Below are positions 959-18,257 of a DNA stretch of 40,000 nt, piece after piece. The notes beneath the pieces were generated by a model. It saw nothing but the letters and a program-made list of their open reading frames with translations. It did not search any database and had not been told where the DNA came from. Both the position numbers and the translations under genes were made by a program. Origin of the DNA: Rhodovulum sp. DZ06 (GTDB lineage Bacteria; Pseudomonadota; Alphaproteobacteria; Rhodobacterales; Rhodobacteraceae). Every line of letters begins with the position of its first letter. Positions within the stretch are counted from its first letter, which is position 1. Location: assembly GCF_050586345.1 (NCBI RefSeq), contig NZ_JBOCEF010000042.1:5362-45361 (forward strand), read 5' to 3'.

Positions 959-2419
959 ATGACCGACCGCCCCGACCGCGCCCCCGAGCCGGAAGACGCC
1001 GCGCCCGAGGCGCTTTCCGCCCGGATCGACACCGAGGCGCCGGAGGAGCGGCCGGAGGAGCGCGAGGAGCCCGAGGACGAGTTCGCACTGGAGCGCGAGG
1101 TGGTCCAGCGCGTCCGCGCCGCGGTCGAGGCCGAGGACCGCGAGACCCTCCTCGCCGAGGTCGAGGAGCTGCACGCGGCCGACCTCGCCGATCTTCTCGA
1201 ACAGCTCGGCCATGACGACCGCGCCGCGGCCGTGCGGCTGCTCGGCGGCGATCTCGACCCGGACGTGTTCTCGGAGCTCGAGGACGACGTGCGCGACGAC
1301 GTGCTCGAGGCGATGGAGCCCGAGAACCTCGCCGCCGCGGCCAAGGAGCTGGACGCGGACGACGTCGTCTACCTGGTCGCCGACCTCGAGGACGACCAGC
1401 GCGACGCGGTGCTGGACGCGCTGGACCCGGTGGACCGGACCGCGGTCGAGCAGGCGCTGGAATACCCCGAATACACCGCCGGCCGCCTGATGCGGCGCGA
1501 GCTGGTCGCCGCCCCGCCGTTCTGGACGGTGGGGCAGATGATCGACCACCTGCGCTCGCGCGACGACCTGCCGGACGAATTCACCGACATCATCCTGGTG
1601 GACCCGGCGCTGAAGCCGGTGGACCTGGTGCCGCTCTCCCGCGTGATGGGCGCCGGGCGCGACCGCAAGCTGCAGGATCTCGCGCGCGACGACATGCGGG
1701 TGCTGAAGGCCGAGACGAGCCAGGAGGACGTCGCCTACGCCTTCAACCAGTACCACATGATGTCCGCCCCGGTGGTGGACGAGGACGGGCGGCTGGTCGG
1801 CGTCATCTCCATCGACGACGCGATGGAGGCCCTGGACGAGGAGGCGGAAGAGGATCTCAAGCTGCTGGCCGGCGTCGGCGACGAGTCGCTGTCGGACAAG
1901 GTGACCGAGATCGTGAAGGCCCGCTTCCCCTGGCTGGCGGTGAACCTGTTGACGGCGATCCTGGCGTCGCTGGTGATCGGGATGTTCGACACCACGATCG
2001 AGGCGATCGTGGCGCTGGCGATCCTGATGCCGATCGTCGCCTCGATGGGCGGCAATGCGGGGACGCAGACGCTGACGGTGGCGGTGCGCGCCATCGCGAC
2101 GCGCGACCTGACCGCGGCCAACATGTGGCGCATCGTCGGCCGCGAGACGCTGGTGGGCCTGCTCAACGGGGTCGCCTTCGCGATCCTGATCGGGGTCATC
2201 ACCCTGCTGTGGTTCGGCGACCCGATGCTCGGCGGCGTGCTGGCGGCGGCGATGATCGTCAACCTGCTGGTGGCCGGGCTGGCGGGGATCCTGATCCCCA
2301 TCGCGCTCGACAAGGTGGGGGCGGACCCGGCGCTTGCCTCGGGCACCTTCGTGACCACGGTGACGGACGTGGTGGGGTTCTTCGTGTTCCTCGGGCTGGC
2401 GGGCGCGGTGCTGCTGTAA
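959..2419 (+). CDS. mgtE: magnesium transporter MgtE
   Basis: The product has an acidic N-terminus, then MgtE_N-like (LHAADLADLLEQL) and CBS-pair regions, then a C-terminal membrane domain (PIVASMGGNAGTQT, DVVGFFVFLG). The ATG at 959 follows GGAGG at 949-953. The track ORF from 29 is an Arg/Pro/Gly-rich artefactual extension. Confidence 0.9.
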   Translation: MTDRPDRAPEPEDAAPEALSARIDTEAPEERPEEREEPEDEFALEREVVQRVRAAVEAEDRETLLAEVEELHAADLADLLEQLGHDDRAAAVRLLGGDLDPDVFSELEDDVRDDVLEAMEPENLAAAAKELDADDVVYLVADLEDDQRDAVLDALDPVDRTAVEQALEYPEYTAGRLMRRELVAAPPFWTVGQMIDHLRSRDDLPDEFTDIILVDPALKPVDLVPLSRVMGAGRDRKLQDLARDDMRVLKAETSQEDVAYAFNQYHMMSAPVVDEDGRLVGVISIDDAMEALDEEAEEDLKLLAGVGDESLSDKVTEIVKARFPWLAVNLLTAILASLVIGMFDTTIEAIVALAILMPIVASMGGNAGTQTLTVAVRAIATRDLTAANMWRIVGRETLVGLLNGVAFAILIGVITLLWFGDPMLGGVLAAAMIVNLLVAGLAGILIPIALDKVGADPALASGTFVTTVTDVVGFFVFLGLAGAVLL

Positions 2420-2587
2420 CGCGCCGCCGCGGCAGGTGGATTCAAGGGGGCGCGCCCGGGCCGGGCGCGCCCCCTTCGTTTGCGCGGCGTGGTCGCGGGG
2501 CGCCGCCACGTCATCGCGATCCGCGCTTGGGCGCGGCGCGTCTTCGCCCTTAGCCTGTCGCGCAAATGGCGCGGGGAGGGCGTTGGG

Positions 2588-4237
2588 ATGGCGGATGCTG
2601 CGGATGTGATCGTGGTGGGCGCGGGGCTTGCGGGCCTCGTCGCCGCGACCGAGGCGGCGGACCGGGGCCGCAGGGTGCTGGTGCTGGAGCAGGAGGGGCG
2701 CCAGAGCCTCGGGGGGCAGGCGCACTGGTCGCTCGGCGGGCTGTTCATGGTCGACACGCCCGAGCAGCGGCGGATGGGCATTCGCGACGGGCGCGATCTT
2801 GCGGCGATCGACTGGATGGGCTCGGCCGCGTTCGACCGCCGCGAGGATGCGAACCCGCGGGCGGTGGCGGAGGCCTATCTCGATTTCGCCGCCGGCGAGA
2901 TGCGGCCCTGGCTGCACGCCATGGGGATGCGCTGGTTCCCCGTCGTCGGCTGGGCCGAGCGGGGCGGGGGCGCGGCGGACGGGCACGGGAACTCCGTCCC
3001 GCGCTTCCACGTCACCTGGGGCGTGGGGCCGGGCGTCGTGGCGCCCTTCGCGCGGCGGCTGGCCGAACATGAGGCGGCGGGGCGGATCGAGCTTCGGAAT
3101 CGGGTCCGCGTGGATGGGCTTCTGGTCGAGGGCGGGCGCCTGGCCGGGGTGCATGGCGCGGTCCTGGCCCCCGACGACGCCCCCATCGGCGCCCCGACGG
3201 GGCGGGAGGTGGTGGGCGATTTCGAGGCGCGGGCGGGCGCCGTGGTGCTCGCCTCGGGCGGCATCGGCGGCGATTTCGACAAGGTGCGCGCCCGCTGGCC
3301 CGAGGCGCGGCTCGGCAAGGCGCCGCGCAGGATGGTGGCGGGGGTTCCGGCCTATGTCGACGGGCGCATGGTCGACATCGCCAAGGCCGCCGGGGCCGGG
3401 GCGATCAACGAGGACCGGATGTGGCATTACTGCGAGGGGCTGGAGAACTGGGACCCGATCTGGCCGTCCCACGGGATCCGCATCCTGCCGGGGCCGTCCT
3501 CCCTGTGGTTCGACGCGCTGGGGCGGCGGATGGAGGCGCCGTGCCTTCCGGGGTTCGACACCATGGCCACCCTGCGCCGGATCCTCTCGACCGGGCATGA
3601 GCACAGCTGGTTCGTGCTGACCCAGAGCATCATCGCCAAGGAGTTCGCGCTGTCGGGGAGCGAGCAGAACCCCGATCTCGCCTCGGGGAAATGGGCGGAG
3701 GTGATCCGGTCGCGGCTTGCGGCGAAGGGGGCGCCGGGGCCGGTGGAGGCGTTCAAGGAGAAGGGCGCGGATTTCGTGGTGGCCGAGGGGTTGGAGGAGC
3801 TGGTGGCGGGGATGAACCGGCTGGTCCCGGAGGCGCCGCTGGACGCCGCGGCGATGCGCGCGCAGATCGAGGCGCGGGATGCGCAGATCGACAACCCCTT
3901 CGCCAAGGACGCGCAGGTGATCGCGATCCGGCAGGCGCGGGCCTATCGCGGCGACCGGCTGGTGCGGACGGCCAAGCCGCACCGGATCCTGGACCCGGCG
4001 CATGGCCCGTTGATCGCGGTGCGGCTGAACGTGCTGACGCGCAAGACGCTCGGGGGGCTGCACACGGATGTCGGCGCGCGGGCGCTGCGGCCGGACGGGG
4101 AGGTGTTCGACGGGCTGTTCGCGGCCGGAGAGGCGGCGGGGTTCGGCGGCGGCGGCTATCACGGGTGGAATGCGCTCGAGGGGACGTTCCTCGGGGGCTG
4201 CATCTTCTCGGGGCGGGCGGCGGGGCGGTCGGTCTGA
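2588..4237 (+). CDS. FAD-binding dehydrogenase (KsdD/succinate-dehydrogenase-flavoprotein-like predicted oxidoreductase)
   Basis: There is an N-terminal dinucleotide fold (DVIVVGAGLAGLVAATEAADRG) and a C-terminal FAAGEAAGFGGGGYHG motif. The ATG at 2588 follows GGGGAGGG. Confidence 0.8.
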   Translation: MADAADVIVVGAGLAGLVAATEAADRGRRVLVLEQEGRQSLGGQAHWSLGGLFMVDTPEQRRMGIRDGRDLAAIDWMGSAAFDRREDANPRAVAEAYLDFAAGEMRPWLHAMGMRWFPVVGWAERGGGAADGHGNSVPRFHVTWGVGPGVVAPFARRLAEHEAAGRIELRNRVRVDGLLVEGGRLAGVHGAVLAPDDAPIGAPTGREVVGDFEARAGAVVLASGGIGGDFDKVRARWPEARLGKAPRRMVAGVPAYVDGRMVDIAKAAGAGAINEDRMWHYCEGLENWDPIWPSHGIRILPGPSSLWFDALGRRMEAPCLPGFDTMATLRRILSTGHEHSWFVLTQSIIAKEFALSGSEQNPDLASGKWAEVIRSRLAAKGAPGPVEAFKEKGADFVVAEGLEELVAGMNRLVPEAPLDAAAMRAQIEARDAQIDNPFAKDAQVIAIRQARAYRGDRLVRTAKPHRILDPAHGPLIAVRLNVLTRKTLGGLHTDVGARALRPDGEVFDGLFAAGEAAGFGGGGYHGWNALEGTFLGGCIFSGRAAGRSV

Positions 4238-4334: not shown

Positions 4335-4430
4335 CGGACGCTGCCGCGTCCTTCCCCCCGCCCCGCGCGGCCCATCCCTCGCACCCCATCCGCCCCCTCG
4401 CGCCCGCCGCGCCCCGCGCGGCGCGGGCGC
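4335..4430. repeat. 96-bp direct repeat, copy A, abutting the element terminus at 4431
   Basis: cggacgctgccgcgtccttcccccc...gcgcggcgcgggcgc aligns with 12639-12734. By eye I count 2 substitutions and two 2-nt indels. Confidence 0.85.
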
Positions 4431-4477
4431 TGTCTGCTTTCATATCAGTTGACCCGTGCTTTCAGCCGTCCTGAGCC
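4431..4477. repeat. gene-distal (Mu R-end equivalent) terminal region with two putative transposase-binding motifs
   Basis: Site 1 is TTTCA(4438-4442)-TAT-CAGTTGA(4446-4452). Site 2 is TTTCA(4460-4464)-N6-CTGAGCC(4471-4477). The same two motif types recur in inverted orientation at 12548-12638. Confidence 0.6.
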
Positions 4478-4533
4478 GGGCATTTCCGAGAACAGCCGTC
4501 CACAGCCGAGAACCCGAGAGAGCGCCGGAGGCG

Positions 4534-4920
4534 TCAGCGCCCGCGCGTCTTCTTGAGCCAGGCGCGGACCGACACGTCCGACGCGAGGATAGTGCGGGCG
4601 ATTTGGGCGGTGGACATGCCGCGGGCGGCGAGGGTGCGGGCCAGCCAGGGCTTGGCAAGGGGAATCCGGCGCGGAAGGAGGTCGCGCGCGGCGGCCAGCG
4701 CCTCGGCGCCCTCCGCTCCAAGCGTCTCTTGCAGCCGCCCGCGCGGCGAAGGCGTCGCGGGAATCGTCAGCTCGGCCCCGCCGAAGTTCAGCAGGAAGCG
4801 GATCGCGTGGTCTTCCCCCAGCGCATCGACGAAGGGGGCGACCTGGGCCGGGGCGCGCACGGGGGCGACGCCCTCGGCCCTCTCGGGCAGGCAGGGCCTG
4901 CGGGCCTGCGGCGGCGTCAT
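4534..4920 (-). CDS. Mor/C-family-like transcription activator (C-terminal HTH)
   Basis: The product has FLLNFGGAELTIP, a second RRIPLAKP segment and a C-terminal HTH (GMSTAQIARTILASDVSVRAWLKK). This resembles the Mor family layout (GGxQ.YIP ... HTH). The ATG at 4920 overlaps the upstream stop (ATGA at 4917-4920). Confidence 0.5.
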   Translation of the reverse strand: MTPPQARRPCLPERAEGVAPVRAPAQVAPFVDALGEDHAIRFLLNFGGAELTIPATPSPRGRLQETLGAEGAEALAAARDLLPRRIPLAKPWLARTLAARGMSTAQIARTILASDVSVRAWLKKTRGR

Positions 4921-5351
4921 TGGCCCGTACCCCGCGCCTTGCGCTGGCGATGCCACCAGCGGTGAAGCGAGCTTGCCGACACGCGGCGCTCCGGCGGGAA
5001 GGCCCGGGCGATGTCCTGGGCCAGCTCCTTGAAGGTCATATCGTCCACCCGGTCGCGGACGAAGGCGTTCAGCTCGGCGTCGGTGTCGAGCAGGGACGGA
5101 CGGCCACGCCAGCCTCGCGCCCGCCAGTCGCCGTTCCTGCGCCCGACGAAGCTTCCGGCGCCGGGCTGTTCAAGACCGTCTTGAACGGGTCTGGAAAGGC
5201 GGGCTGCAAGCCGCGCAAGAATACCTGTCAGGCGGCCCGCCAGCTCGTGCGCCTCAGCCAGGTCGGCGGCGAGCGGGTCGGCGTCCTTCAGCTCGGGCGC
5301 CGGGGCCGCGGGGCGCCCCCCGCCGTCGCCCGACTTCAGTTCGTCCCGCAT
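4917..5351 (-). CDS. hypothetical protein with a C-terminal HTH resembling the N-terminal DNA-binding domain of Mu gp27/DUF3486-type small terminase
   Basis: The ATG at 5351 follows GGAGAGGG with 8-nt spacing; an alternative GTG lies at 5423. The C-terminus reads RPSLLDTDAELNAFVRDRVDDMTFKELAQDIARAFPPERRVSASSLHRWW. The family resemblance is recalled from memory and has not been searched. Confidence 0.45.
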   Translation of the reverse strand: MRDELKSGDGGGRPAAPAPELKDADPLAADLAEAHELAGRLTGILARLAARLSRPVQDGLEQPGAGSFVGRRNGDWRARGWRGRPSLLDTDAELNAFVRDRVDDMTFKELAQDIARAFPPERRVSASSLHRWWHRQRKARGTGQ

Positions 5352-5467
5352 TTCGTGTACCCTCTCCGCCAGCGCATCGCAGCACCGGGATATGGGCCCG
5401 GCCCGTTTTCGGACGTTCGGCACGGGGCGCCGACCTCACCATGCCTTTCCCGACCCACGGTCGGCGT

Positions 5468-6439
5468 TCAGTCGCTCAGCGCATCCGGCGCAAGCCCGAG
5501 CTGGGCGCAGACAGCCGCCGCGGCCTCGGACGCGGGCCGGGCGCTCCGACGCGCGGGCGGATCGGCAGGCGCCGTGCGGCGGGTCAGGTGCGCATAGGCC
5601 GGGGCGCCGCTGTTGATGAAGGTGTCGAAGCTGTCTTCGTCGCTCAGGCACAGCGCCAGCGCCCATTCGCGCATGGGCGTCGTCAGATACCCCCGGCGGA
5701 AGGCGTCTTCGACCTTCGCTTCCGCCCGCTCCTGGGCGGCGCGCGCAAGCTCGAGCTTGCGATCTTCCATGAGGCTCTGCACCGCTTCGATGGGCACGAA
5801 GCGCGACGGGTCGGGCGCCGCGGCGTTGGCCGCCGCCGAAGCCCCTTCGGACGTGTCGCGCCCGGCGACCTCCAGAAGCGCCGCCACCGCGTCGAACACG
5901 TCCCCCTCGCCCGCCATCGCGTCCAGGCCCAGCAGCTCGGCCAGGCGGGCGAACATGCCCTCCGCCGGCGCGCCGTCCTCCGACGCCAGGGCGACCAGGT
6001 TCAGGTTCGGGTTGTGCACCAGCCCGGCGCCCTTGAGGCGCACCACGCTCCGGTCCTTCATGTGATAGAAGGTCGGGCTGAGATAGCGGTATTCCTTCGC
6101 GCCGATCAGCGACCGGGCGCGTTCGGTCCAGGCGACCCGGCCCCAGATCCCGTTCGGCGCCACCTTCAGCTCCTTGATCCAGCCCGCGGCGGGGATCGGA
6201 CCGGAGGGGGCGGCGTCGCCCTTGGCCTTGGTGTCGTTCTGGTGGTTGTAGTCCACCGGCAGGTCGATCCCCCCGGCTTCGAAGTCGTTCACCAGCGCCT
6301 GCGGGTCGCGCAGGACATAGCGGCGGCCATCGCGCCCGGTCATCTCGCCCGCGGGCAGGAGGTGAACCCATTCGGGCGCGCCGTTCTCGGACGGGGCGCC
6401 CAGTTCGCTGTCGAAGCGGGCGAGGAACAGTTCGGTCAT
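5468..6439 (-). CDS. Mu-like prophage protein I (head maturation protease/scaffold, gpI family)
   Basis: MTELFLARF...PEWVHLLPAGEMTGRDGRRY...IDLPVDYNHQ...AAGWIKELKV..GIWGRVAWTERA...YRYLSPTF matches gpI (COG4388-type) signature blocks. The C-terminal half is helical and scaffold-like. Confidence 0.85.
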   Translation of the reverse strand: MTELFLARFDSELGAPSENGAPEWVHLLPAGEMTGRDGRRYVLRDPQALVNDFEAGGIDLPVDYNHQNDTKAKGDAAPSGPIPAAGWIKELKVAPNGIWGRVAWTERARSLIGAKEYRYLSPTFYHMKDRSVVRLKGAGLVHNPNLNLVALASEDGAPAEGMFARLAELLGLDAMAGEGDVFDAVAALLEVAGRDTSEGASAAANAAAPDPSRFVPIEAVQSLMEDRKLELARAAQERAEAKVEDAFRRGYLTTPMREWALALCLSDEDSFDTFINSGAPAYAHLTRRTAPADPPARRSARPASEAAAAVCAQLGLAPDALSD

Positions 6440-6468
6440 GCGCGGAGGTCCTTGCAGTTCGCCGTGGA

Positions 6469-7365
6469 TCAGTCGGCCAGGAAGGGCGACACGATCAGCT
6501 CGGCGGCGCCCTTCCATTCGTTGGTCATCCCGCCATCGCCCAGCTCGGAGTTGAGGATTTTCCGCGCGGCGCCTTCGAGCGAGGGCGGGACCACCAGGAC
6601 GTCCGGCCGCACGCCCAGCGGGCGCCCGCCATCGGCGCGGAAGGACATCATCGCGGCGCGCGCGGTCTGATAGGCGGCGGCGTTGAGAGTCTGCCTGGGG
6701 CCATAGGCGAGCTGCCAGAGGCCGAACCCGGCGTTCACACGGGCGCGGATCCCGTACAGGAACTGGTCGTTGAAGAAGACGTCGTCGTCTTCCGGGCGGT
6801 CGCGCCGCTGGAACTCGTAATCCTCGCGCACCTGCCAGATGAGCGGGCGCACCGCCCGCGACGTGTCGAGCAGGAACCAGGGCGCGCCGCCGCCCCCATC
6901 GGTGTTGGAGACGCTGACGGTGTCGCCTTCCGCGTCGACCACCGGGTGGTCCGCGTCGAAGAAGTACTGGCCATCGTAGCATTCCGACGTGAAGCCGTCC
7001 TTGAGCAGCGAGAACAGCAGCTCGTCGGGATGCGTCCGGGCCGTCACGCCCATCTCGGCGAACATCGGCTTGAAGATGCCCAGCCGATCGTCGCTGATGG
7101 TGTTGCGCGGAACTTCGACCGTGCTTTCGAAGGTCCGGTTCAGGATGGTGAAGGAGGAGGTGGACAGGCTGTGAACATGCCGCGGCCCGACCCACTCGCG
7201 CAGGTTCGGGAACTGGCCGAACCAGCCATAGGTTTCATCGCGGGCCGAGCTGGGGACCGTCATGGCGACCCGCTCGTGATGAACCGGGGTCCGGTCATAG
7301 CTGTCGCGATAGACGGTCTGGAAGCCCTTGAAGGCCAGTTCGAGGTTCGGTCCGGTGAGGTCCAT
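6469..7365 (-). CDS. Mu-like major head subunit (gpT family)
   Basis: Signature blocks are YGWFGQFPNLREWVGPR, DGFTSECYDGQYFFDADHPV, WFLLDTSRAVRPLIWQ and ADGGRPLGVRPDVLVVPPSL, as in Mu gpT. The ATG at 7365 follows AGGAA. The track start at 7431 is probably too far upstream. Confidence 0.88.
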   Translation of the reverse strand: MDLTGPNLELAFKGFQTVYRDSYDRTPVHHERVAMTVPSSARDETYGWFGQFPNLREWVGPRHVHSLSTSSFTILNRTFESTVEVPRNTISDDRLGIFKPMFAEMGVTARTHPDELLFSLLKDGFTSECYDGQYFFDADHPVVDAEGDTVSVSNTDGGGGAPWFLLDTSRAVRPLIWQVREDYEFQRRDRPEDDDVFFNDQFLYGIRARVNAGFGLWQLAYGPRQTLNAAAYQTARAAMMSFRADGGRPLGVRPDVLVVPPSLEGAARKILNSELGDGGMTNEWKGAAELIVSPFLAD

Positions 7366-7634
7366 GCTCTGTTCCTGCGCTGTTGCTTGAAGCGCAGAAT
7401 GCCGCCCCGCCTTTTCGCGTTCGACCCGCAAGGGCTTGCGCGAAAGGCGGGATGAAGCGGGGCGGAAGGCGGCTTGTCGGGGCGCGAGAGGGGCGGCGAA
7501 AGAGGCCGCGGGGCGGCGTCGCGCGATTAAACGGCAAATCTTCGTTTTTAAACGGAGCGCCGGAGTTTCGCGGGGCGACCCACCCGGAGAGGAGAAGGCC
7601 TGTCAGCGGGCCTCTCAGAGGCTCTGAGAGCCGA

Positions 7635-7661
7635 GGGGCGGCGCGTCGGTCGCGCCGCCCC
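7635..7661 (-). terminator. GC-rich hairpin 17 nt downstream of the gemA stop (terminator-like, no clear U-tract)
   Basis: ggggcggcgcg-tcggt-cgcgccgcccc forms an 11-bp perfect stem with a 5-nt loop. It is followed on the transcribed strand by the 19-bp palindrome CTCTCAGAGgCTCTGAGAG (7612-7630). Confidence 0.4.
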
Positions 7662-7678
7662 TGTTCGCGTTCCGGGCC

Positions 7679-8101
7679 TCAGCCCGCGGCGGCGGCGCGA
7701 AGCCGCCGCTTCATCGCCTTGAGCGCGGTGATCGCCCGCGGGGCCTCCGCCGCCGTCAGGAACCGCAGGCTGTCCACCTTGAAGCAGCGGCGCAGCCAGG
7801 CTTCCAGTCCGGCGCCGTCCGGGCGCCCGCTCCACTCCGCCCACAGCGCGCGGATCAGCTCGCACTGCGCGCGGCTCGCGAAGCCGGGACGGTCGCCATA
7901 GTCGGGGCCGGTCCGGCGCGTGGGCTCGAACCCGTTCCGCTCGAAGAACCCCATCACCGCGTCGAACCCGTCCTGGTCAAGCTCGGTCGAGCTGGTCACG
8001 CCCGCCAGCCGAAAGAGCGCGAGCCGGTACACGTCTTCGTCCAGCCCGAGCTTGGCCTTGGCGACGTGCAGAAGCGCCTTCTGCTTGTTCGTGATGGTCA
8101 T
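7679..8101 (-). CDS. gemA: GemA / Mu gp16-like regulatory protein (DUF1018)
   Basis: MTITNKQKALLHVAKAKLGLDEDVYRLALFRLAGVTSSTELDQDGFDAVMGFFERNGF matches the gp16/GemA family pattern. The ATG at 8101 overlaps the upstream stop (ATGA at 8098-8101). Confidence 0.8.
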   Translation of the reverse strand: MTITNKQKALLHVAKAKLGLDEDVYRLALFRLAGVTSSTELDQDGFDAVMGFFERNGFEPTRRTGPDYGDRPGFASRAQCELIRALWAEWSGRPDGAGLEAWLRRCFKVDSLRFLTAAEAPRAITALKAMKRRLRAAAAG

Positions 8102-8466
8102 GCCGCCTCTCCCATCCTGGTCGCGCTCAGCGCCCGCGCATAGGCCCGGATCAGGGCGATGCGGATAAAGGGCGTGCACAGCATCCGGTCGATCAGAGCG
8201 GCGTCCGAAGCGAGCGCCGCGCCGCCCGAGTCCACGACCCCTTCGAAGCCAAGCACCACCGCGCGCAGGAACTCCCTGACGCCGCCGGAGGTCGAGGTGC
8301 CGAAGGCCGCGGCCTCATCGTCCCTCAGGGCGCGAAAGCGCGTCTGCAAGACCTGTTCCTGGTGGCCGTCATCGACGGGAACCAGGACCTGAACGGCGTG
8401 GGTGAACTCGGGGTTCGAGACGAACGTGAACATGGGGCTGCGGACCTCTTCGACTACGCAGTTCAT
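8098..8466 (-). CDS. hypothetical protein (pattern reminiscent of siphovirus tail-assembly-chaperone families)
   Basis: High GC3 and ATGA coupling at both ends. FTHAVQVLVPVDDG...LQTRFRALRDDE...FLRAVVLGFEGVVDSGG resembles the TAC layout. This is a recalled pattern only. Confidence 0.5.
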   Translation of the reverse strand: MNCVVEEVRSPMFTFVSNPEFTHAVQVLVPVDDGHQEQVLQTRFRALRDDEAAAFGTSTSGGVREFLRAVVLGFEGVVDSGGAALASDAALIDRMLCTPFIRIALIRAYARALSATRMGEAA

Positions 8467-8699
8467 TCCGCGTCCTCCGCTTCGGTCGCGTCAGCCAGAA
8501 CCCCGAGGGCGAACGCGATGGCGCCGCTCAGCTGGCGCCCTGCGCCCTCGGCAAGGGTAAGGTCAACCGCCCGGACAGAAGACGCATGGAAGGACTTCGT
8601 CCCGTCCGCGTCGGTCTTGGTGAACAGCCAGGGCCGCACGGAACCGGCGGGCGTTTCCACGGCGTCTTCCAACAGGAGGGCCGTCGCATCCCGTTCCAT
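8463..8699 (-). CDS. hypothetical protein (78 aa)
   Basis: AGGAG lies upstream of the ATG at 8699. GC3 is high and the stop overlaps the next start (8463-8466). I recognise no family. Confidence 0.45.
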   Translation of the reverse strand: MERDATALLLEDAVETPAGSVRPWLFTKTDADGTKSFHASSVRAVDLTLAEGAGRQLSGAIAFALGVLADATEAEDAE

Positions 8700-8723
8700 G
8701 TGCTCCTGCCAGGCCCGAGCATT

Positions 8724-8816
8724 CTACAGCGTCTCGGTCATGATGGTCGCGCCCTGCGCCGCGGCCTCAAGGGCCTTGCGGAGCGCGTCGATCTTGTCGG
8801 CGTCGGTCATGGTCAT
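8724..8816 (-). CDS. possible micro-ORF (28-30 aa)
   Basis: A GAGGAG RBS lies immediately after the MuB-like stop. It reads ATGACCATG... MT(M)TDADKIDALRKALEAAAQGATIMTETL; the second ATG (8810) has better spacing. It is too short for the ORF track. Confidence 0.3.
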   Translation of the reverse strand: MTMTDADKIDALRKALEAAAQGATIMTETL

Positions 8817-8825
8817 CTCCTCACG

Positions 8826-9641
8826 TCATCTGCTGCGGCGCGACGCCTGCGGCCCGCCCTTCATGGTCAGGCCCTCGGCCAGGATGGCGGCCCGGATCGC
8901 GGCGCCGTCCGGCGCGGCGCCCCCGGCGAAGTCCGCCGCCGCGGCGAGAACGTTGACCACGGTGCGCAGGCTGCCGCGCCCGCGGGCCACCGCGTCCAGG
9001 GCGGCGAGCGCCTTGGCGTCCGTCACGCCCCAGCGCGCGGCCAACAGCGCCGCGTCGCCCGCGCCCACGCTCTTGAGCGTCAGCGGGCGGCGCATCCGGC
9101 TCCACAGCTGCGGCATGTCGGCGATGATCGGCGAAAGGGTCGTGTCGCCGATGAAGGCCAGCGCGAAGCCGCCTTCCTCCTGCATGGCCCGCAGCCACTC
9201 GAACCCCGCCCCCATCAGCCGGGACTTGCCGTCGTACTCGTGCAGGTTCTGCGCTTCGTCCACCAGGACGATGCAGGACTTGCCGACGATGCGCGCCAGG
9301 TATTCGCGCCTCTGGGTGAGGGAGCCGTAAGAAGACAGCGCGCTTTCATGAAAGCCCATGGCGTTCAACAGGTTGTAGGCGATGTTCCACGGGCGTCCCT
9401 CGCCCTTGGCGACCCGCAGATAGACCGCGTCCTGGGCGCCGAGCTCCTCGCACAGGTGAAGCAGCGCTTCGGTCTTGCCGATGCCCGGCGCGCCCGAAAT
9501 CATCGTCACGCCCCCGTTCGCGCCGGAGCGGACGAGGTTCAACGACCTGAGAATTTCCGCGGCGGTCTCGGTCATCACGAACCCGCCGGGCTGCGCCTGC
9601 GGGGGCGCCTCCGGCTTTCCAAGCCTCACGACTTCTGCCAT
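8826..9641 (-). CDS. MuB/TniB-like AAA+ ATPase (transposition target-selection protein)
   Basis: Walker A is GAPGIGKTE and Walker B is IVLVDEAQNL. It sits directly downstream of the transposase. GGAGGA lies 4-5 nt before the ATG at 9641. Confidence 0.8.
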   Translation of the reverse strand: MAEVVRLGKPEAPPQAQPGGFVMTETAAEILRSLNLVRSGANGGVTMISGAPGIGKTEALLHLCEELGAQDAVYLRVAKGEGRPWNIAYNLLNAMGFHESALSSYGSLTQRREYLARIVGKSCIVLVDEAQNLHEYDGKSRLMGAGFEWLRAMQEEGGFALAFIGDTTLSPIIADMPQLWSRMRRPLTLKSVGAGDAALLAARWGVTDAKALAALDAVARGRGSLRTVVNVLAAAADFAGGAAPDGAAIRAAILAEGLTMKGGPQASRRSR

Positions 9642-9708
9642 ATCTTCCTCCGTTTGTGGGTGCGGGCTTGGCCCGCGCGCATCGGTCTGAGGGGCGTTGC
9701 CGCGCCTC

Positions 9709-11643
9709 TCAGACCACCTTCTTCCCCATGGCCGCGAGACGTGCGGCGATGGCGGAATCTTGATTTCTCAACATCTCGTCGGGGATCATTTCGACAGGCT
9801 CGCTCCGTTGGACCGCCTTGGCTGGCAGGTCGCGCAACGGTCCGCCGGACCGTCCCGCCACGACCCGCTCCGGTCCGGGCGCCTGGGGGGACGGCGCCGG
9901 AAGGTCCGCCAGCGCCGCCTCAAAGGCGTCTTCGTCCAGGCAGGCGTTGGCCGCGTCCGCGCGGGCGACCAGGTCCCGCGCCGCCTTGCGATTCCGCGCG
10001 GCGTCGCGAATGCCGTCCGCACTGCCATATGCGCCGGGCTTGATCGCCTCGATGCCCTCGCAGATCAGGCGCCCGTCTTCGTCAAATGCGCGCGCTGGCG
10101 CGGAGAAATCCGAAGGATCACGGCCAATCAGCAACCGCCGCCCGTCGCCGTGGTGCTTCATAAGGGCGTCCTGCGTCTCCATCCCGCCATGGGTCCAGCC
10201 ATCAAGCGTGACCCGCCCCCAGCGATCCACCGCGGCAGGCGTGTAGATCAGCCCGGCAAGGTAGAGCTGGCGCGCCGTCGGCTGCCGCCGCCGCCGGGCG
10301 GACAACCCCGCCTCGAACACCGCCTGGTAGGAACGGCCGCGCGCGCCCTGAGACCGGCGCCCGGTTTCGCGGTTGTAGCGGTGCACTTCGCGCCGAAGCA
10401 CGTCCTGCGCAAACTCGATTGGAACCGGGCGAGGATCACCGCCAGGAGCTTCGCCAGGATTATGCCCCGTGTGCGCTCCTGCGAACTCCGGGCGGTCGTC
10501 AATCACGCGCGAAAGCGCGGCGAAGGTCCGTTCTGCAATCTTCGCCTGCGCGTTCTTCGGCAGGGCGAAGTGCAGCTTGATGCCGAGATGATCGCAGATG
10601 CCGAGGGGCCGGACCTTCTGAAGCTTCGCGCCTGCGTTGCGGAAGCGATGCACACTGCCTCCGGCCACAAGATGACCCGCAAAAGCAGACCCGTTGTCGG
10701 TGTAGAGACGGTCGAAGATGCCGTAGCGCTCGCAGGTCCGCCGGATCAGGCGCACGGTCGCGGGGGCGTTCTCGGACTTCGACACCTCGAAATCCAGGAT
10801 GTAGTTGGACGCCACGTCCACCAGTAACAGGATAGTAGCCTGCACCGGCTGACCGTCTCCATAATGGACCCTAAAGTCGAGGTCTCGACCGTTAAGCGAC
10901 ACCCATTCGAGCACGCCAAGGCCGCTCTTGTCGCGAAGCGCGGGCTGCGCCAGGCGGCGGTTGGCCTCGTCCTTCCCGTGGCGGGCGACAAGCTGCTGGG
11001 CGAGGGGCAGTTCATGCCAGCGGCGGTTCACGGTCGGGTAGGACGGCCAGTCCCACCCGCGCTTCGCCGCCACGTCGCGCACGTCGCGCCACGCCTGCTG
11101 AAGCGGAAAGTCCGGGGCCGCCTTTTGCACCGTGGTCATGAAGAAGGACCACGCATCCGGCGTGATCGGCTTGCGCTCCGATCCGCCCTTGCGGTCAGGA
11201 AGCAGGGCGGGCGCGAAGTTGATCGGATCCACGCCGCGCACCGCCTTCAAGTACCGCTTCAACGAGGCCAGGCAGGCCCCTTTAACGCCGAATTTCGCGT
11301 GCACCAGGGCGAGCCGGTCCGCCCATGCCGTCGGTGCGCCCGGCGCCACCAGAAGGCGCATCATCGCCGCCCGCCGCTCCGCCTCGCCCCGCGCCCAAGG
11401 GGACGCCGCCAGGAACCGCGTGTGGGCTTCGTCGTCGTACTCGCCGGGGTGCAGGGTCTTCTCCGACAGGTCGCGCGCCAGGTAGGCGCGCCGAACGTCG
11501 TCGGGCAGGTCGGAGAGGGAGAAGACGAAGCGGCCGGCTTCTTCGGAGTACGGAATATTGTTCCGGGCCAGCCACTTCCGCGCACCGAATGGTGTTGTGG
11601 GAAGGCCATCCAATCCGGTGATAACTCTGACGGAGAGTTTCAT
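9709..11643 (-). CDS. Mu-like DDE transposase (MuA family), 644 aa
   Basis: rve-type core blocks are present (LYTDNGSAF; ALPKNAQAKIAERTF), with N-terminal DNA-binding regions. The ATG at 11643 overlaps the ner-like stop (ATGA at 11640-11643). The size is close to MuA. Confidence 0.85.
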   Translation of the reverse strand: MKLSVRVITGLDGLPTTPFGARKWLARNNIPYSEEAGRFVFSLSDLPDDVRRAYLARDLSEKTLHPGEYDDEAHTRFLAASPWARGEAERRAAMMRLLVAPGAPTAWADRLALVHAKFGVKGACLASLKRYLKAVRGVDPINFAPALLPDRKGGSERKPITPDAWSFFMTTVQKAAPDFPLQQAWRDVRDVAAKRGWDWPSYPTVNRRWHELPLAQQLVARHGKDEANRRLAQPALRDKSGLGVLEWVSLNGRDLDFRVHYGDGQPVQATILLLVDVASNYILDFEVSKSENAPATVRLIRRTCERYGIFDRLYTDNGSAFAGHLVAGGSVHRFRNAGAKLQKVRPLGICDHLGIKLHFALPKNAQAKIAERTFAALSRVIDDRPEFAGAHTGHNPGEAPGGDPRPVPIEFAQDVLRREVHRYNRETGRRSQGARGRSYQAVFEAGLSARRRRQPTARQLYLAGLIYTPAAVDRWGRVTLDGWTHGGMETQDALMKHHGDGRRLLIGRDPSDFSAPARAFDEDGRLICEGIEAIKPGAYGSADGIRDAARNRKAARDLVARADAANACLDEDAFEAALADLPAPSPQAPGPERVVAGRSGGPLRDLPAKAVQRSEPVEMIPDEMLRNQDSAIAARLAAMGKKVV

Positions 11644-11858
11644 GCGCGACCCTTGCTGACCTCGGCTTCCACTCGGGCAATGAGGGCGTCCGCTTTCCGA
11701 CCCCGCCAACGACCGAAGTAGGCATCCCGCACGTTCTGAATATGCGTGCCGTTTTCCCTGCACCATTCGGTCAGTGTCGTACCCCGCAGGATGAAAGCGG
11801 CTCGTGCCCGCTGGTAGCGAGCTTGGTTTGCGCACATTCCTGTGTTAGGCACTGACAT
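11640..11858 (-). CDS. Ner-like small DNA-binding regulator
   Basis: A 65-72 aa protein sits immediately upstream of the transposase and is coupled to it, divergent from the repressor gene. The start is ambiguous (11858 or 11837). The call rests mainly on position and size, with weak similarity to Ner/Nlp. Confidence 0.55.
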   Translation of the reverse strand: MSVPNTGMCANQARYQRARAAFILRGTTLTEWCRENGTHIQNVRDAYFGRWRGRKADALIARVEAEVSKGRA

Positions 11859-11922
11859 TGAACCGACATACCTCCGGAGTTACATCGGATCGTATGCTAG
11901 GCGTGCAAAACGGTGGTTGCCA

Positions 11923-12441
11923 ATGCATGACGAGTCCAGCCCGTCCGAACTTGTGCTCAGGCTGCACCAGCTGAGGGTTGAGCGAGGCGTGACCATCCAA
12001 GCGATGGCCGAACTGTGCGGGCTGCCTAAGAGTACGCTAGAGAGCTACATGAAGATGAAGGCCGCGCGCAGGCCCGGACTTGATGCTCTGATTGCAATAG
12101 CCAATGGAATGGATGTAAGTATTGACTGGCTTGTTGGGCGCGCATCATCAAAGGCACTTGATGAGGATGCAAAGAGAAAACTGGCCGTTGCCGCCTATGA
12201 TGCGACCGTCCACTTGCTGCAACAGCTCTGCAAAGCGCAAGCGGAAAGCAGTAAGCCAGTGATATCCGAGGATAGGATTGCAGGGCGAACCATCGACCAT
12301 ACCGCTGTCTTGGCCATGCTGGATTTCGTTGCGTCTTCAGGGCTGTTCGCAGCGCCTGGTGGGCAGGCTGGCCGTACCGATCTGCGCGATGTGGATGCCG
12401 TGCTTGAGGTCATCGAGGCAAGGCAACCGGCAACTGAATAG
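11923..12441 (+). CDS. phage repressor (c-like), HTH_XRE N-terminal domain
   Basis: LRLHQLRVERGVTIQAMAELCGLPKSTLESYMK...LIAIANGMDVSIDWLVGR is a classic XRE helix-turn-helix. The gene is divergent from ner/A/B at the element end, as in Mu. I see no S24 peptidase motif. An alternative GTG lies at 11842. GC content is markedly lower (estimated mid-50s %). Confidence 0.8.
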   Translation: MHDESSPSELVLRLHQLRVERGVTIQAMAELCGLPKSTLESYMKMKAARRPGLDALIAIANGMDVSIDWLVGRASSKALDEDAKRKLAVAAYDATVHLLQQLCKAQAESSKPVISEDRIAGRTIDHTAVLAMLDFVASSGLFAAPGGQAGRTDLRDVDAVLEVIEARQPATE

Positions 12442-12547
12442 TTGCCAAGCGCCCGAGCGACGCGCACAGGGCCCATTGAAATCATTGAGTTTTTCCAAAG
12501 GCCGCTCGCGCGGCCTTTCGCGTTCCTGCCTCCTTCACGGCCAAATC

Positions 12548-12638
12548 GGCTCATGTGGAGTGAAATGGTATCCCCTCAACTGTCTGAAATCATTGCATCT
12601 AGAAATTCGCCGCGGCTCATTTGACCTGAAAGCGCTCA
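12548..12638. repeat. repressor-proximal (Mu L-end equivalent) terminal region with three putative transposase-binding motifs
   Basis: The three sites are GGCTCAT-N6-TGAAA at 12548-12565, TCAACTG-TC-TGAAA at 12576-12589, and GGCTCAT-N6-TGAAA at 12614-12631. The region ends ...GCGCTCA at 12638. These are inverted copies of the motifs at 4438-4477. Confidence 0.6.
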
Positions 12639-12734
12639 CGGAAGCTGCCGCGTCCTTCCCCCCCCGCCCCGCGCGGCCCATCCCTCGCCCCATCCGCTCC
12701 CTCGCGCCCGCCGCGCCCCGCGCGGCGCGGGCGC
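12639..12734. repeat. 96-bp direct repeat, copy B, abutting the element terminus at 12638
   Basis: cggaagctgccgcgtccttcccccccc...gcgcggcgcgggcgc aligns with 4335-4430. Confidence 0.85.
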
Positions 12735-12909
12735 CCGAGCGGGGGGCTTGCCCCCCTCCGAGGGCGGCCGCCCCTCCCCCCACAAGGGCAAGGGCGAAAC
12801 CGTTTCAGCCCCCGCGACGCCCCGCCCCGGCGCCATAGGCGGGGTTGACCCGGCCCGGCGCAGCGCTTCCATTGCTCCCGACCCGACCGCCGCGAGCAGG
12901 AGCCGACCC

Positions 12910-13833
12910 TTGACCCAGATCCCCGCCTCAATCGACGAGATGCAGTCCGGCCTCGCCGATGTGGGCTATGTCGCCGACCGCGCCCTCGCCACCGTCGCCT
13001 TCCTGTCGCTCAAGCTCGGCCGCCCGCTGTTCCTCGAGGGCGAGGCGGGCGTGGGCAAGACCGAGATCGCCAAGGCCCTCGCCGCCATGCTGGGCCGCCG
13101 CCTGATCCGGCTGCAGTGCTATGAAGGCCTCGACGCCTCCTCCGCGGTCTACGAATGGAACTTCCCGGCGCAGATGGTCGCCATCCGCACCGCCGAAGCC
13201 ACAGGAGTCGGGGGGGGCGGCGCCGACCGCCAGCGCCTGACGGATGAGCTGTTCTCGGACGAATTCCTCATCGCCCGCCCGCTGCTCGAGGCCATGCGCC
13301 CGCAGGAGGGCGGCGCGCCGATCCTGCTGATCGACGAGCTCGACCGCACGGACGAGCCCTTCGAGGCGTTCCTGCTCGAAGCCCTGTCGGACTTCCAGGT
13401 GACGATCCCCGAGCTTGGCACGGTGAAGGCCGAGGAGCCGCCCATCGTCATCCTCACCTCCAACCGGACCCGAGAGGTGCATGACGCCCTGAAGCGCCGC
13501 TGCCTCTATCACTGGGTCGGCTATCCCGATTTCGAGCGCGAGCTGGAGATCGTCATGGCCAAGGCCCCGGAGGCGCAGGAGGCGCTGTCGCGCGAGGTCG
13601 TCGCCTTCGTGCAGACCCTGCGGACCGAGGACCTGTTCAAGAAACCGGGCGTGGCCGAAGCGATCGACTGGGCGAAATGCCTCGTGGCGCTCGACGCCAT
13701 CCAGATGTCGCCGCAGGTCATCGCCGACACCCTGGGCGCCATCTTGAAGTACCAGGATGACATCGCGAAGATCCAGGGCTCTGAAGCCACGCGGATCCTG
13801 GAAGAGGCCAAGAGGTCGCTCGAGCCCGCGTAA
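12910..13833 (+). CDS. MoxR-family AAA+ ATPase (CoxD-like)
   Basis: Diagnostic blocks are LFLEGEAGVGKTEIAKALA, RLQCYEGLD, YEWNF and ILLIDELDR. I propose a TTG start at 12910, 8 nt after AGGAG (12897-12901). The track start at 12748 would read through the flanking repeat. Confidence 0.85.
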   Translation: MTQIPASIDEMQSGLADVGYVADRALATVAFLSLKLGRPLFLEGEAGVGKTEIAKALAAMLGRRLIRLQCYEGLDASSAVYEWNFPAQMVAIRTAEATGVGGGGADRQRLTDELFSDEFLIARPLLEAMRPQEGGAPILLIDELDRTDEPFEAFLLEALSDFQVTIPELGTVKAEEPPIVILTSNRTREVHDALKRRCLYHWVGYPDFERELEIVMAKAPEAQEALSREVVAFVQTLRTEDLFKKPGVAEAIDWAKCLVALDAIQMSPQVIADTLGAILKYQDDIAKIQGSEATRILEEAKRSLEPA

Positions 13834-13854
13834 GAACGGCGGGGAGGTTTTCGG

Positions 13855-14250
13855 ATGGACTGGCTCAGGCGCTTCGAGACGCGACGCCGCAAGATGACCA
13901 GGGGCGAGATCCTCGCGCTTGTCGGGATCATCGCCGCGGCCACGGTCGCCGATTGGGCGCCGGAGGCCGCCGGGCGGCCCGCCGCGGGCGGCGCCGCGTC
14001 GCTCTTCCTCATCATGCTCGGCTGCCTTGCGCTGTTCGCCGGCTGGACCCTCGGCGGCGCGCTGGCCTTCAGCGCGCCCCGGGCGGCGGCCGCGGCGGCG
14101 TCCGCGTTCACGGGCGAAGCGCTTCGCGACCGGCTGGGGCGGCTGACGAGCGTCCTGGCGGGCCTGGCCGTCTTCGCCCTGTGCGGGCTGGCCGCCTGGG
14201 CGCTGACCCGGAAGATGCGCGCGCGCCGCTGCGCCCCGCCCCAGGACTGA
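13855..14250 (+). CDS. hypothetical membrane protein (about 3 TM segments)
   Basis: GGGGAGG lies upstream of the ATG. Hydrophobic segments include ILALVGIIAAATV, LFLIMLGCLALFAGWTLGGALAF and LAGLAVFALCGLAAWAL. It sits between the MoxR and VWA genes. Confidence 0.5.
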   Translation: MDWLRRFETRRRKMTRGEILALVGIIAAATVADWAPEAAGRPAAGGAASLFLIMLGCLALFAGWTLGGALAFSAPRAAAAAASAFTGEALRDRLGRLTSVLAGLAVFALCGLAAWALTRKMRARRCAPPQD

Positions 14251-14287
14251 CCGCCCGGCGCGCGCCGGGCGACGACAAGGAAACGAG

Positions 14288-15550
14288 ATGGCTGATTTCG
14301 CCGACCTGGGCATCCCCGAGAACGGGAAGCTGGAACACAACATCATCCATTTCGCCCGGGCCCTGCGCAATGCGGGCCTGCCGGTCGGCCCCGGCCGCGT
14401 CACCGACGCCATCCGCGCGGTCGAAGCCGCCGGGTTCACCTCGAAGCGCGATTTCTACCACACCCTCGCCGCCTGCTTCATCTCGAAGCCCGAGCACCGG
14501 CAGGTTTACGGCCAGGTGTTCCGCCTGTTCTGGCGCGATCCGCAATTCCTCGAGCACATGATCTCCATGCTCTCGCCCATGGTCCGGGGCGTGGCCGAGC
14601 CGCACAAGCCGAAAGACGCCGAGAAGCGCGCCGCCGAGGCGCTGCTGGAAGGCGCCGACCAGCCGCCGCCCCCGATCAAGGAGCAGGAGGAGGAGGGGCG
14701 CGAGATCGAGATCGACGCGACGCTGACCTTCTCGGCCGACGAGAAGCTCAAGACCCTCGATTTCGAGCAGATGACCGCGGCCGAGCAGGCCATGGCCCGC
14801 CGCGCCATCGCCCAGCTGCGCCTGCCGGTCAAACCCATCCAGTCGCGCCGCACCCGGCCCTCGGCCCAGGGCCGCCGCCCCGACTGGCGCGCGACCATGC
14901 GCGACGCGATGCGCCATGGCGGCGAGATCCACGAGCTGAAGATGCGGGCGCGGCGGGAACGCTGGCCGAACCTGGTGGCGCTCTGCGACATCTCGGGGTC
15001 GATGTCGGGCTACAGCCGGATGCTGCTGCATTTCCTCCATGCCGCCGCCAACGCCAAGGGGGCGGGCTGGGCCAAGGTCCACGCCTTCACCTTCGGCACC
15101 CGGCTGACCAACATCACCCGCCACATGCAGGCGCGCGACGTCGACGCCGCCCTGCGCGCCGCGGGGGCCGAGGCGCAGGACTGGGAGGGGGGCACCCGCA
15201 TCGGCGCCTGCCTCGAGGAGTTCAACCGCGACTGGTCCCGCCGGGTGCTGGGGCAGGGGGCGGTGGTGCTGCTGATCACCGACGGGCTCGACCGCGACGA
15301 CCCGGAGCGGCTGCGCGCGGCGGCCGAGCGGCTGCACCTGTCCTCGCGCAAGCTGATCTGGCTGAACCCGCTGCTGCGCTGGGACGGGTTCGCGCCGAAG
15401 GCGGGGGGCGTGAAGGCGCTGCTGCCGAACGTGGACAGCTTCCGCGCCTGCCACAACGTGGACAGCCTGCAGGATTTCGCCGACGCGCTGGGCAAGCCGG
15501 ATGACAATGGCGACAAGCGCCGCCTGATGGGGCTGCTCGAGAAGGGCTGA
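14288..15550 (+). CDS. VWA domain protein, CoxE-like
   Basis: The conserved N-terminal region reads FARALRNAGLPVGPGRVTDA. The VWA/MIDAS region reads ALCDISGSMSGYS ... LLITDGLDRDD. An AAGGAA RBS is present. This is the typical partner of a CoxD-like MoxR ATPase. Confidence 0.85.
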   Translation: MADFADLGIPENGKLEHNIIHFARALRNAGLPVGPGRVTDAIRAVEAAGFTSKRDFYHTLAACFISKPEHRQVYGQVFRLFWRDPQFLEHMISMLSPMVRGVAEPHKPKDAEKRAAEALLEGADQPPPPIKEQEEEGREIEIDATLTFSADEKLKTLDFEQMTAAEQAMARRAIAQLRLPVKPIQSRRTRPSAQGRRPDWRATMRDAMRHGGEIHELKMRARRERWPNLVALCDISGSMSGYSRMLLHFLHAAANAKGAGWAKVHAFTFGTRLTNITRHMQARDVDAALRAAGAEAQDWEGGTRIGACLEEFNRDWSRRVLGQGAVVLLITDGLDRDDPERLRAAAERLHLSSRKLIWLNPLLRWDGFAPKAGGVKALLPNVDSFRACHNVDSLQDFADALGKPDDNGDKRRLMGLLEKG

Positions 15551-15678
15551 GGCGGGGCGGCATTCACGCCGCGCTCATCCCAGCGCCGAAACCGCCCGGT
15601 TTCCGCCGCGACCCCGGCGCCCGCGCGCCGCATCCTTCCCTTGCGGCATTTGCGCCGCGGACAGAGGGGAGGACGACC

Positions 15679-16821: not shown

Positions 16822-16888
16822 GCCGCCCGAGATGGCGTCCCGGCCGGGATCGGTCAATCCGCGCGGGACGCCGTGCCGCGCGCGGGCC

Positions 16889-17213: not shown

Positions 17214-18253
<1,040 letters not shown>

Positions 18254-18257
<4 letters not shown>

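Follow-up and report, generated by a model that had tools for sequence, protein, structure and literature searches.

We analysed a 40-kb stretch of the genome of Rhodovulum sp. DZ06 (the window) that contains an element of about 8.2 kb at positions 4431-12638. It represents a family of Mu-type elements of about 8 kb in Rhodobacterales that is conserved, mobile and monophyletic; its coordinates are given as window positions. About 70 loci with the same compact layout were found in Rhodobacterales genomes and in metagenomes, and at the level of the family the observation is solid. The core structural genes of the family are those of the major head protein gpT and the head protease/scaffold gpI, while some members also carry X, a small virion protein, and gpG. 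The set for regulation and transposition consists of a repressor/ner switch, the transposase MuA, the ATPase MuB, GemA and usually the late activator Mor. The family is apparently undescribed so far. We found no description of such compact elements in the full-text literature, a mention in the 2023 ISME J census of transposable phages being possible. A paper on roseobacter phages with a 'Mu-like head' mentions short 'prophage remnants' but does not analyse them further (PMC5488378).

Distribution, mobility and lineage of the family

A scan with gpT as the query, conducted on one genome per species, returned 21 loci. In 20 of them the gene order was c-ner-A-B-...-gemA-T-I-(mor)-o168 where sequence was available, o168 being a family-specific gene. 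The compact loci all came from Rhodobacterales/Paracoccaceae with the exception of one in a metagenome-assembled genome (MAG) labelled Exiguobacterium; the only locus with the canonical order I-then-T, which was accompanied by a terminase and a portal gene, came from Elusimicrobiales. The exceptional compact locus (L006, contig CAZNPW010000033.1) is a high-GC element of the Rhodobacterales type in an 'uncultured Exiguobacterium sp.' MAG, i.e. in a Firmicute, and probably reflects a binning error rather than a transfer across phyla. In IMG/VR eight of nine loci were compact, on contigs of 4-8.6 kb.

When metagenomes were scanned with aligned MuA proteins of the family as the query, 40 loci with a MuA of the family type were added. 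Most of those that reached beyond MuB ran on as gemA-T-I-(mor)-o168, and a few were internally deleted. None of the 40 contained a homologue of the small or large terminase (TerS, TerL), portal, gpF, major tail protein, tape measure, J or endolysin of Rhodovulum phage RS1, and T, I, X, G and Mor were the only RS1 late genes with homologues in family loci. Searches of phages, genomes, viral sequences and metagenomes did not yield a full-length relative of the compact family. The search of plasmids yielded only canonical full-length Mu-like prophages with a gpT identity below 48%. One of these, L042 at 5317-24234 of an 81-kb Aeromonas plasmid (NZ_CP077204.1), is complete and canonical, and its tail region contains an inserted HEPN/Toprim-associated gene; gpT matches of a similar kind occurred on several further Aeromonas plasmids.

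Insertion of family members follows the Mu mode of transposition and duplicates 5 bp of the target. The ends of relatives were mapped by a search anchored on target duplications, because a brute-force search for inverted repeats was too noisy at such a GC content. Nine relatives had perfect 5-bp duplications and recognisable inverted termini at unrelated sites. Eight of these elements were 7751 to 8488 bp long: L050 (7751 bp, GGCCG), L060 (7920 bp, TGGGG), L012 (7951 bp, GAAAC), L052 (8061 bp, AGAAC), L083 (8128 bp, CCCCC), L014 (8173 bp, CCCGG), L071 (8386 bp, GCCGG) and L015 (8488 bp, CTTTC). The ninth, L009 (AGAAC), measured 11,018 bp. Sediminimonas qiaohouensis DSM 21189 and Maritimibacter fusiformis HY14 are among the hosts of copies with such duplications. 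In all 16 loci examined the right end with its terminal CA was located about 100-130 bp past the o168 homologue. One family contig terminated exactly at an element end and another was roughly element-sized.

Some members deviated from the common layout. In L009 about 1.2 kb (4914-6078) interrupt the MuA region, and in L013, from an Amaricoccus MAG, about 2 kb are inserted between T and I (1896-4062). Internal deletions in L054, L065, L048, L076 and L077 fused A-B-T, joined A directly to I or left a truncated A beside T. The family therefore also leaves decaying copies.

In a neighbour-joining tree the gpT sequences of all 26 compact elements formed one clade in 187 of 200 bootstraps. Eight canonical references fell outside this clade, namely RC1, RS1, vB_ThpS-P1, vB_RhkS_P1, RS138, JBD25 and two metagenomic loci. 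The gpT of the window was the earliest branch of the compact clade. It was 55-64% identical to family members and at most 52.5% identical to that of any sequenced phage. The window MuA was 53-59% identical to its closest family members and at most 28.5% identical to any sequenced phage; for gpI the respective values were 44-50% and at most 34.5%. The closest relative of the window copy was L037, a TARA Oceans scaffold with the same order gemA-T-I-o168-mor-end and amino-acid identities of 75% for T, 62% for I, 81% for GemA and 72% for Mor. The ratios of nonsynonymous to synonymous substitution (dN/dS) between the two were 0.18 for gemA, 0.25 for T, 0.31 for mor, 0.45 for I and 0.47 for o168, and they are probably overestimates because the strong bias in third-position GC (GC3) compresses dS. 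As judged by these ratios, the genes of the capsid and the protease/scaffold are under purifying selection.

One subfamily (L027, 3817-7523; L004, L009, L010, L025 and L029) carries the 144-residue 'virion structural protein' X (phrog_1731, E 5e-44) between T and I and, in addition, a gpG homologue (PF05069). The resulting order T-X-I-G is the exact reverse of G-I-X-T in the full records of RC1 and RS1, with all genes on the same strand; the four partial phage records checked read I-X-T. A simple deletion or inversion cannot produce T-X-I-G. Mor took three different positions in three subfamilies. On this evidence the compact elements appear to be a single old lineage of their own.

A preliminary description of the window element, made from its letters, had proposed a search for compact elements in related genomes as well as a phylogenetic and dN/dS comparison of the head genes. 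Both checks turned out in favour of a family, with many compact elements that share the gene set at different insertion sites, and with a separate gpT clade and dN/dS values of 0.18-0.47. The same description had named frameshifts, a lack of similar elements elsewhere or a near-identical full-length prophage as the marks of a remnant. We saw no frameshifts in the window copy, compact elements were found elsewhere and a near-identical full-length prophage did not turn up.

Ends, genes and state of the window copy

With TG at 4431 as its first and CA at 12638 as its last letters, the element has matching termini, TGTCTGCTTTCATATCA at one end and the reverse complement TGAGCGCTTTCAGGTCA at the other. 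A 22-bp site, TTTCAN7TGASCC, occurred exactly four times in the window, twice at each element end and in inverted orientation; 0.35 copies were expected in the whole 40 kb and none of 100 shuffles reached four. The mor-proximal (S-type) end (4431-4477, +) consists of the TG terminus and tandem repeats of the site at 4438-4455 and 4460-4477, and it has a counterpart in L037. The c-proximal end (12548-12638, -) has the CA terminus and sites at 12614-12631 and 12548-12565; its terminal motif TGA[CG][GC]GCTTTCA recurs in L012 and L014. The element thus has the ends of a Mu-type transposon, TG...CA with several inverted transposase-binding sites.

Genes were called from GC3 and family searches because raw lists of open reading frames (ORFs) are full of artefacts at the G+C content of the window, about 73%. 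The element contains eleven ORFs, all uninterrupted and all except c on the minus strand. GC3 was 0.78-0.93 in the nine genes from A to mor and about 0.6 in c and ner. A long ORF at 5436-6371 was discounted as an out-of-frame artefact of the high GC content. Start and stop codons overlap as ATGA at four junctions (11640-11643, 8463-8466, 8098-8101 and 4917-4920).

The c-like repressor (11842-12441, +; HTH_3 and repressor PHROGs) is transcribed divergently from the other genes. The early genes begin with a small Ner-like helix-turn-helix (HTH) regulator of 72 residues (11640-11858, -), which matched phrog_15281 (E 4e-12) and weakly the BcepMu gp16 family, and which is kept at the same position throughout the family. 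It is followed by the MuA-like DDE transposase of 644 residues (9709-11643, -; DDE_2, HTH_Tnp_Mu_2, phrog_310 with E 4e-77) and the MuB-like AAA+ transposition ATPase of 271 residues (8826-9641, -; AAA_22, Phage-MuB_C), the Walker A motif of which is GAPGIGKT. Two small genes come next. The early ORF o78 (8463-8699, -) is intact with a GC3 of 0.78 and had no family match, while the accessory gene o122 (8098-8466, -) matched phrog_569 and is a homologue of a gene in the tail module of RS1 and RC1. GemA (7679-8101, -) has 140 residues and matched PF06252 with E 1.5e-23.

The intergenic region between gemA and gpT (7524-7661, -) reads like a control region. A GC-rich, terminator-like hairpin just after gemA (7661-7635) is followed downstream by an AT-rich island at 7555-7524, CCGTTTAAAAACG..CCGTTTAAT, and both are conserved in the sister element L037. 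A late operon T-I-o168-mor is probably transcribed from a promoter in this island. The major head protein gpT (6469-7365, -) matched PF10124 over its full length (E 1.2e-125); its ORF is open from 7431, and the start is probably the ATG at 7365, which gives 298 residues. The head protease/scaffold gpI of 323 residues (5468-6439, -) covered positions 1-327 of the 330 of the PF10123 profile (E 1.5e-59) and matched phrog_328 with E 1e-68. On the coding strand gpT lies upstream of gpI, and both are located between gemA and mor, unlike the order in Mu. The presumed operon ends with o168 (4917-5351, -) and the Mor-like activator of late transcription (4534-4920, -; 128 residues, phrog_836, E 2.9e-18).

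Pfam and PHROG searches gave no match to terminase, portal, lysis or tail-shaft genes among the ORFs of the element. Portal, head-tail connectors and a small terminase were not detected, nor was there a site-specific integrase, a primase or a rep gene; MuA and MuB are present instead. Most of what the preliminary description had read from the letters thus held in profile searches and motif counts. This applies to the TG...CA ends with matching inverted repeats, to the divergent c-like repressor and Ner-like gene, to the calls of MuA, MuB, GemA, Mor, gpT and gpI, to the lack of lysis, terminase, portal and tail genes, and to the uninterrupted ORFs with four ATGA overlaps.

The product of o168, annotated with 144 residues by NCBI, combines a long N-terminal helix with a C-terminal homeodomain-like HTH. 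It matched HTH_32 and Sigma70_r4_2 weakly, its AlphaFold2 model had a pLDDT (predicted local distance difference test) of 80, and the o168 of one family member had a weak match to phrog_426. Relatives fell into 292 clusters at 50% identity, 79 of them with E≤1e-10, and both contexts checked among the closest relatives were again T-I-o168-mor. A homologue was found neither in RC1 nor in RS1. A role as small terminase was rejected, since hhalign gave a probability of 0.4% and the Foldseek search against the PDB was not significant, with homeodomain/Myb-like folds on top. o168 could act in pac recognition or in regulation.

The transposase of the window copy carries a substitution at its active site. 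Residue 251, which aligns with the catalytic D269 of Mu, is Asn (codon AAC, 10893-10891), while all 38 relatives examined have Asp at this position (seven of seven genome loci and 31 of 31 metagenome loci) and an intact catalytic triad. The other triad residues, D316 and E371, are intact, yet the triad as a whole is incomplete. In DDE transposases, substitution at Mu D269 abolishes both cleavage and strand transfer. The transposase of the window copy is therefore probably inactive. Apart from this position the protein is not unusual, with three unique changes at family-invariant sites, a number not above that of several relatives; gpT and gpI have no unique changes at family-invariant columns.

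The flanks of the window copy are likewise atypical. A 5-bp target-site duplication was looked for, but GGCGC and CGGAA on the two sides do not match. Instead the element lies between the two copies of an imperfect direct repeat of 96 bp. The left copy U (4335-4430) stops exactly at the TG of the element, and the right copy U' (12639-12735) begins directly after the CA. They differ by two substitutions and two indels of 2 bp (about 4% divergence), and the repeat has only these two copies within the window. The unit has a GC-rich hairpin at its start and another at its end. A cruciform target as the source of this 'duplication' was dropped, because U has two end hairpins and not one long palindrome. 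The empty insertion site was not recovered among the closest homologues of the CoxD-like neighbour (93% identical), which were located on contigs that were too short or had a different synteny. One scenario that fits is that two independent insertions in the same orientation occurred 96 bp apart in different strains and that homologous replacement of one junction then produced U-element-U'. This would account for the mismatched 5-bp flanks as well as for the divergence of U and U'.

With D251N at the first catalytic residue and with rearranged flanks, the window copy is probably non-autonomous. The suggestion in the preliminary description that the element can probably still transpose is thus doubtful, given Asn251 and the lack of a 5-bp duplication. 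The chances stand level that the copy is a domesticated or fossil insertion in DZ06, fixed and immobile, and kept by drift or for the expression of T and I. D251N is unique among the 39 family sequences and the duplication is missing, as would be expected of a fossil, and the four differences between the flanking repeats suggest age or recombination. Yet every ORF is intact, and the three unique changes in MuA do not set it apart from several relatives that have as many. Because both ends keep their sites, the element with N251 could also be moved in trans by a transposase supplied from another copy.

A putative satellite of transposable phages

To be filled, capsids of the HK97 fold require a portal and a terminase, neither of which is ever encoded by the family. 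Dependence on a helper is therefore the most economical reading. As the best explanation we favor, by a narrow preference, a helper-dependent phage satellite that would replicate by transposition and supply its own head shell, with siphoviruses of the RC1/RS1 type as likely helpers. For the satellite mechanism as such we see about even chances. Part of the virion gene set is missing while replication and regulation functions of its own are kept, which is a general feature of satellites.

The following course of events is conceivable. Upon derepression the element would amplify through replicative transposition. The early operon (ner to gemA) would end at the GC-rich hairpin 7661-7635, and the late operon T-I-o168-mor, located behind this terminator and equipped with its own promoter, would be turned on by Mor, which might also cross-talk with late promoters of the helper. 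The capsid protein and scaffold of the element would then assemble on the portal of the helper, possibly as smaller shells, and the terminase of the helper would package the element by the headful from the c end. Helper tails would finish the particle, the helper being a co-resident or superinfecting transposable phage. The narrow size range of eight of the nine mapped elements fits a shell of limited capacity, although the size of the capsid is pure speculation.

Phages of the RC1/RS1 type would be the likeliest helpers because of their hosts, their gpT, their Mor and a homologue of o122. These siphoviruses infect Rhodobacter and Rhodovulum. Among sequenced phages RC1 and RS1 have the closest gpT (52.5%). 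The window Mor is 56% identical to that of RS1 and thus closer to it than to the Mor of family members from the genome scan, while the Mor of L037 is closer still. The product of o122 was 34% identical over its full length to RHVG_00048 of RS1 (E 5e-19), a gene located just upstream of the tape-measure genes in RS1 and RC1. The gene o122 was absent from the other compact loci L001-L032. It may have been captured from the putative helper. More than 4000 proteins matched the TerL of the RS1 type, and the named organisms among the top 120 were all Rhodobacterales/Paracoccaceae-type taxa.

Several points weigh against the satellite reading. A helper prophage was absent from the 40-kb window, and none was found within the 10-kb flanks of relatives. 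Capsid formation and encapsidation are predictions from gene content. Without a portal or TerS, packaging would rest wholly on the presumed fit of the shell proteins to a foreign portal, and neither hhalign nor Foldseek detected a likeness of o168 to TerS. A comparison of the element ends with those of RS1, in which a shared pac site was sought, gave only chance 9-11-mers. The single occurrence of the candidate late-promoter motif CCGTTTAA in RS1/RC1 lies within a coding sequence and does not coincide with a late promoter. Lastly, with a transposase that looks dead and a missing duplication the window copy may do nothing at all.

The complete transposable siphoviruses of Rhodobacterales, Rhodobacter phage RC1, Rhodovulum phage RS1 and vB_ThpS-P1, resemble the family in gpT (about 50-52%), gpI, Mor (56% for RS1) and X. 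They share its c/early/late layout, the Mu-type ends and replication of the MuA/MuB type. On the other hand they are 39-40 kb long and have terminase, portal, F, G, tail and lysis genes with the order G-I-X-T, while the 8.2-kb element has only T and I of the head/late set, and these in reversed order. Between the MuA and MuB of the element and those of RC1 and RS1 there is essentially no relationship. No RC1 match was obtained at E<1e-5, and the A protein of RS1 gave only weak partial matches (about 25%) to other family loci and none to the window. Among the features of a complete Mu-like phage, MuB and the ends were found in the window copy, and the intact triad, the 5-bp duplication and the full virion module were lacking. 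Because it has no virion module, the element is not a complete transposable phage.

Engineered mini-Mu elements consist of two Mu ends with c, A and B and without morphogenesis genes; they transpose and are packaged only by a helper Mu, by the headful from the c end. The likeness to our element lies in the ends and in c, A and B. A mini-Mu, however, is a laboratory deletion without capsid genes, while the element belongs to a natural, ancient and diversified lineage with a T/I cassette and a family-specific HTH protein of its own. An RcGTA-like agent, i.e. a gene transfer agent (GTA) of the Rhodobacter capsulatus type, is an immobile chromosomal cluster of head and tail genes; it includes terminase and portal and packages DNA at random. 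The element, with its transposon ends and with target duplications in its relatives, is a mobile one without terminase, portal or tail. The satellite P4 of phage P2 is comparable in having a late operon that alters capsid assembly, and the homologous late activators P4 delta and P2 Ogr transactivate reciprocally. The Mor gene in the late operon of our element suggests a comparable arrangement. P4 differs in that it has the external scaffold Sid only and no capsid protein, integrates by a tyrosine recombinase and replicates as a plasmid.

Known phage satellites such as P4, phage-inducible chromosomal islands (PICIs), capsid-forming PICIs (cf-PICIs), PICI-like elements (PLEs) and others integrate by site-specific recombinases and replicate as episomes. 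To our knowledge no satellite derives from transposable phages or parasitises them. Somewhat more tentatively than the helper dependence itself, we therefore consider that the family may be the first satellite lineage of transposable phages. It would provide its own capsid and protease/scaffold (with X and gpG in some members) and build satellite-specific, possibly smaller heads on the helper portal, to be filled by headful packaging and joined to helper tails; its size range would reflect the capacity of the shell, and Mor and o168 would mediate cross-talk with the helper.

The cf-PICIs are small chromosomal elements with their own major capsid protein and protease and without tails, like the element described here (bioRxiv 10.1101/2022.09.08.507074). 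This likeness is functional only. Judged by gene content, the family would, as is presumed for cf-PICIs, produce its own capsids and take whatever else it needs from the helper. The cf-PICIs have an integrase, a replicon of their own, portal, connectors and TerS (bioRxiv 10.1101/2022.09.08.507074), while the family uses Mu-type transposition; without portal, TerS and integrase the element does not belong to them. The Streptomyces satellites MiniFlayer and MulchMansion have encapsidation genes of their own, as the family does, but are without replication genes (PMC10690885), whereas the family has a complete module for transposition and replication and few structural genes.

An alternative, which we regard as unlikely, sees in the family an autonomous non-viral transposon, the capsid and protease of which are cargo with a cellular or defensive role without any transfer by particles. 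The cargo might poison the head assembly of invading Mu-like phages, as one option, or form an encapsulin-like compartment, as another. The family does have everything needed for transposition and nothing for DNA packaging, and no other protein of the element is as conserved as gpT. Furthermore, the window copy, immobilised as it looks, keeps T and I perfect at invariant sites, which is expected if the host benefits. Yet no element protein matched a known defence component, PADLOC giving only weak generic HTH/AAA matches for c and MuB, and the head genes are tightly linked to late regulation of the Mor type. The variable extra morphogenesis genes X and gpG look like virion assembly and not like a compartment, and the range of 7.75-8.5 kb in eight of nine mapped elements points to a limit set by packaging. 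Satellites moreover normally interfere with their helpers, so this alternative overlaps with the satellite reading.

It is most improbable that the family exploits a gene transfer agent of the RcGTA type by giving it a larger shell, so that its portal, terminase and tails carry 8 kb. The family was found almost only in Rhodobacterales, most of which carry such an agent, and the element is without exactly those parts that a GTA cluster provides. However, no search result ties the element to GTA genes, its gpT, gpI and Mor are closest to those of phages of the RC1/RS1 type, and a scaffold and capsid of the Mu type would need to fit an unrelated portal.

One-off decay, in which a Mu-like prophage of 35-40 kb lost its late genes by chance deletion in DZ06, could draw on the catalytic-site substitution, the missing duplication, the decaying relatives (L054, L065, L048, L076/77) and frameshifts in L019 and L021, but it can be dismissed in view of about 70 loci that agree in their boundaries and in a non-canonical gene order, the monophyletic gpT, nine relatives with 5-bp duplications at different sites, the lack of a full-length relative in all searches and dN/dS below 0.5. 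At the level of the family a chance remnant is excluded, in agreement with the preliminary description, which had not expected random decay to leave such uninterrupted genes and had listed a lucky deletion as an alternative.

If the satellite reading is true, the replication strategies of satellites would gain a new one, that of a naturally occurring mini-Mu which encodes its own capsid protein, and its simple two-gene capsid/scaffold system would serve studies of how head size is set. In marine members of Rhodobacterales the elements would also be a new vehicle for the transduction of host DNA, since neighbouring genes are carried along when an integrated copy is packaged by the headful. Software for prophage detection and annotation will call such loci 'incomplete Mu-like prophages', and an abundant mobile element is thereby overlooked.

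Other genes of the window

Outside the element the window contains ordinary host genes (MgtE, an FAD oxidoreductase, CoxD/CoxE-like genes, XdhC, folate genes, TrkH, CrtC and others). Two long ORFs at 16126-17064 (-) and 23703-25010 (-) lie in stretches of about 82% G+C, have a very high GC3 and gave no Pfam match; they may be either genuine proteins of low complexity or products of the base composition. At 19964-20383 (+), where no adjacent effector gene was noticed, metabolic genes surround a homologue of the Rap1a family of type VI secretion immunity proteins (PF18602, E 6e-16).

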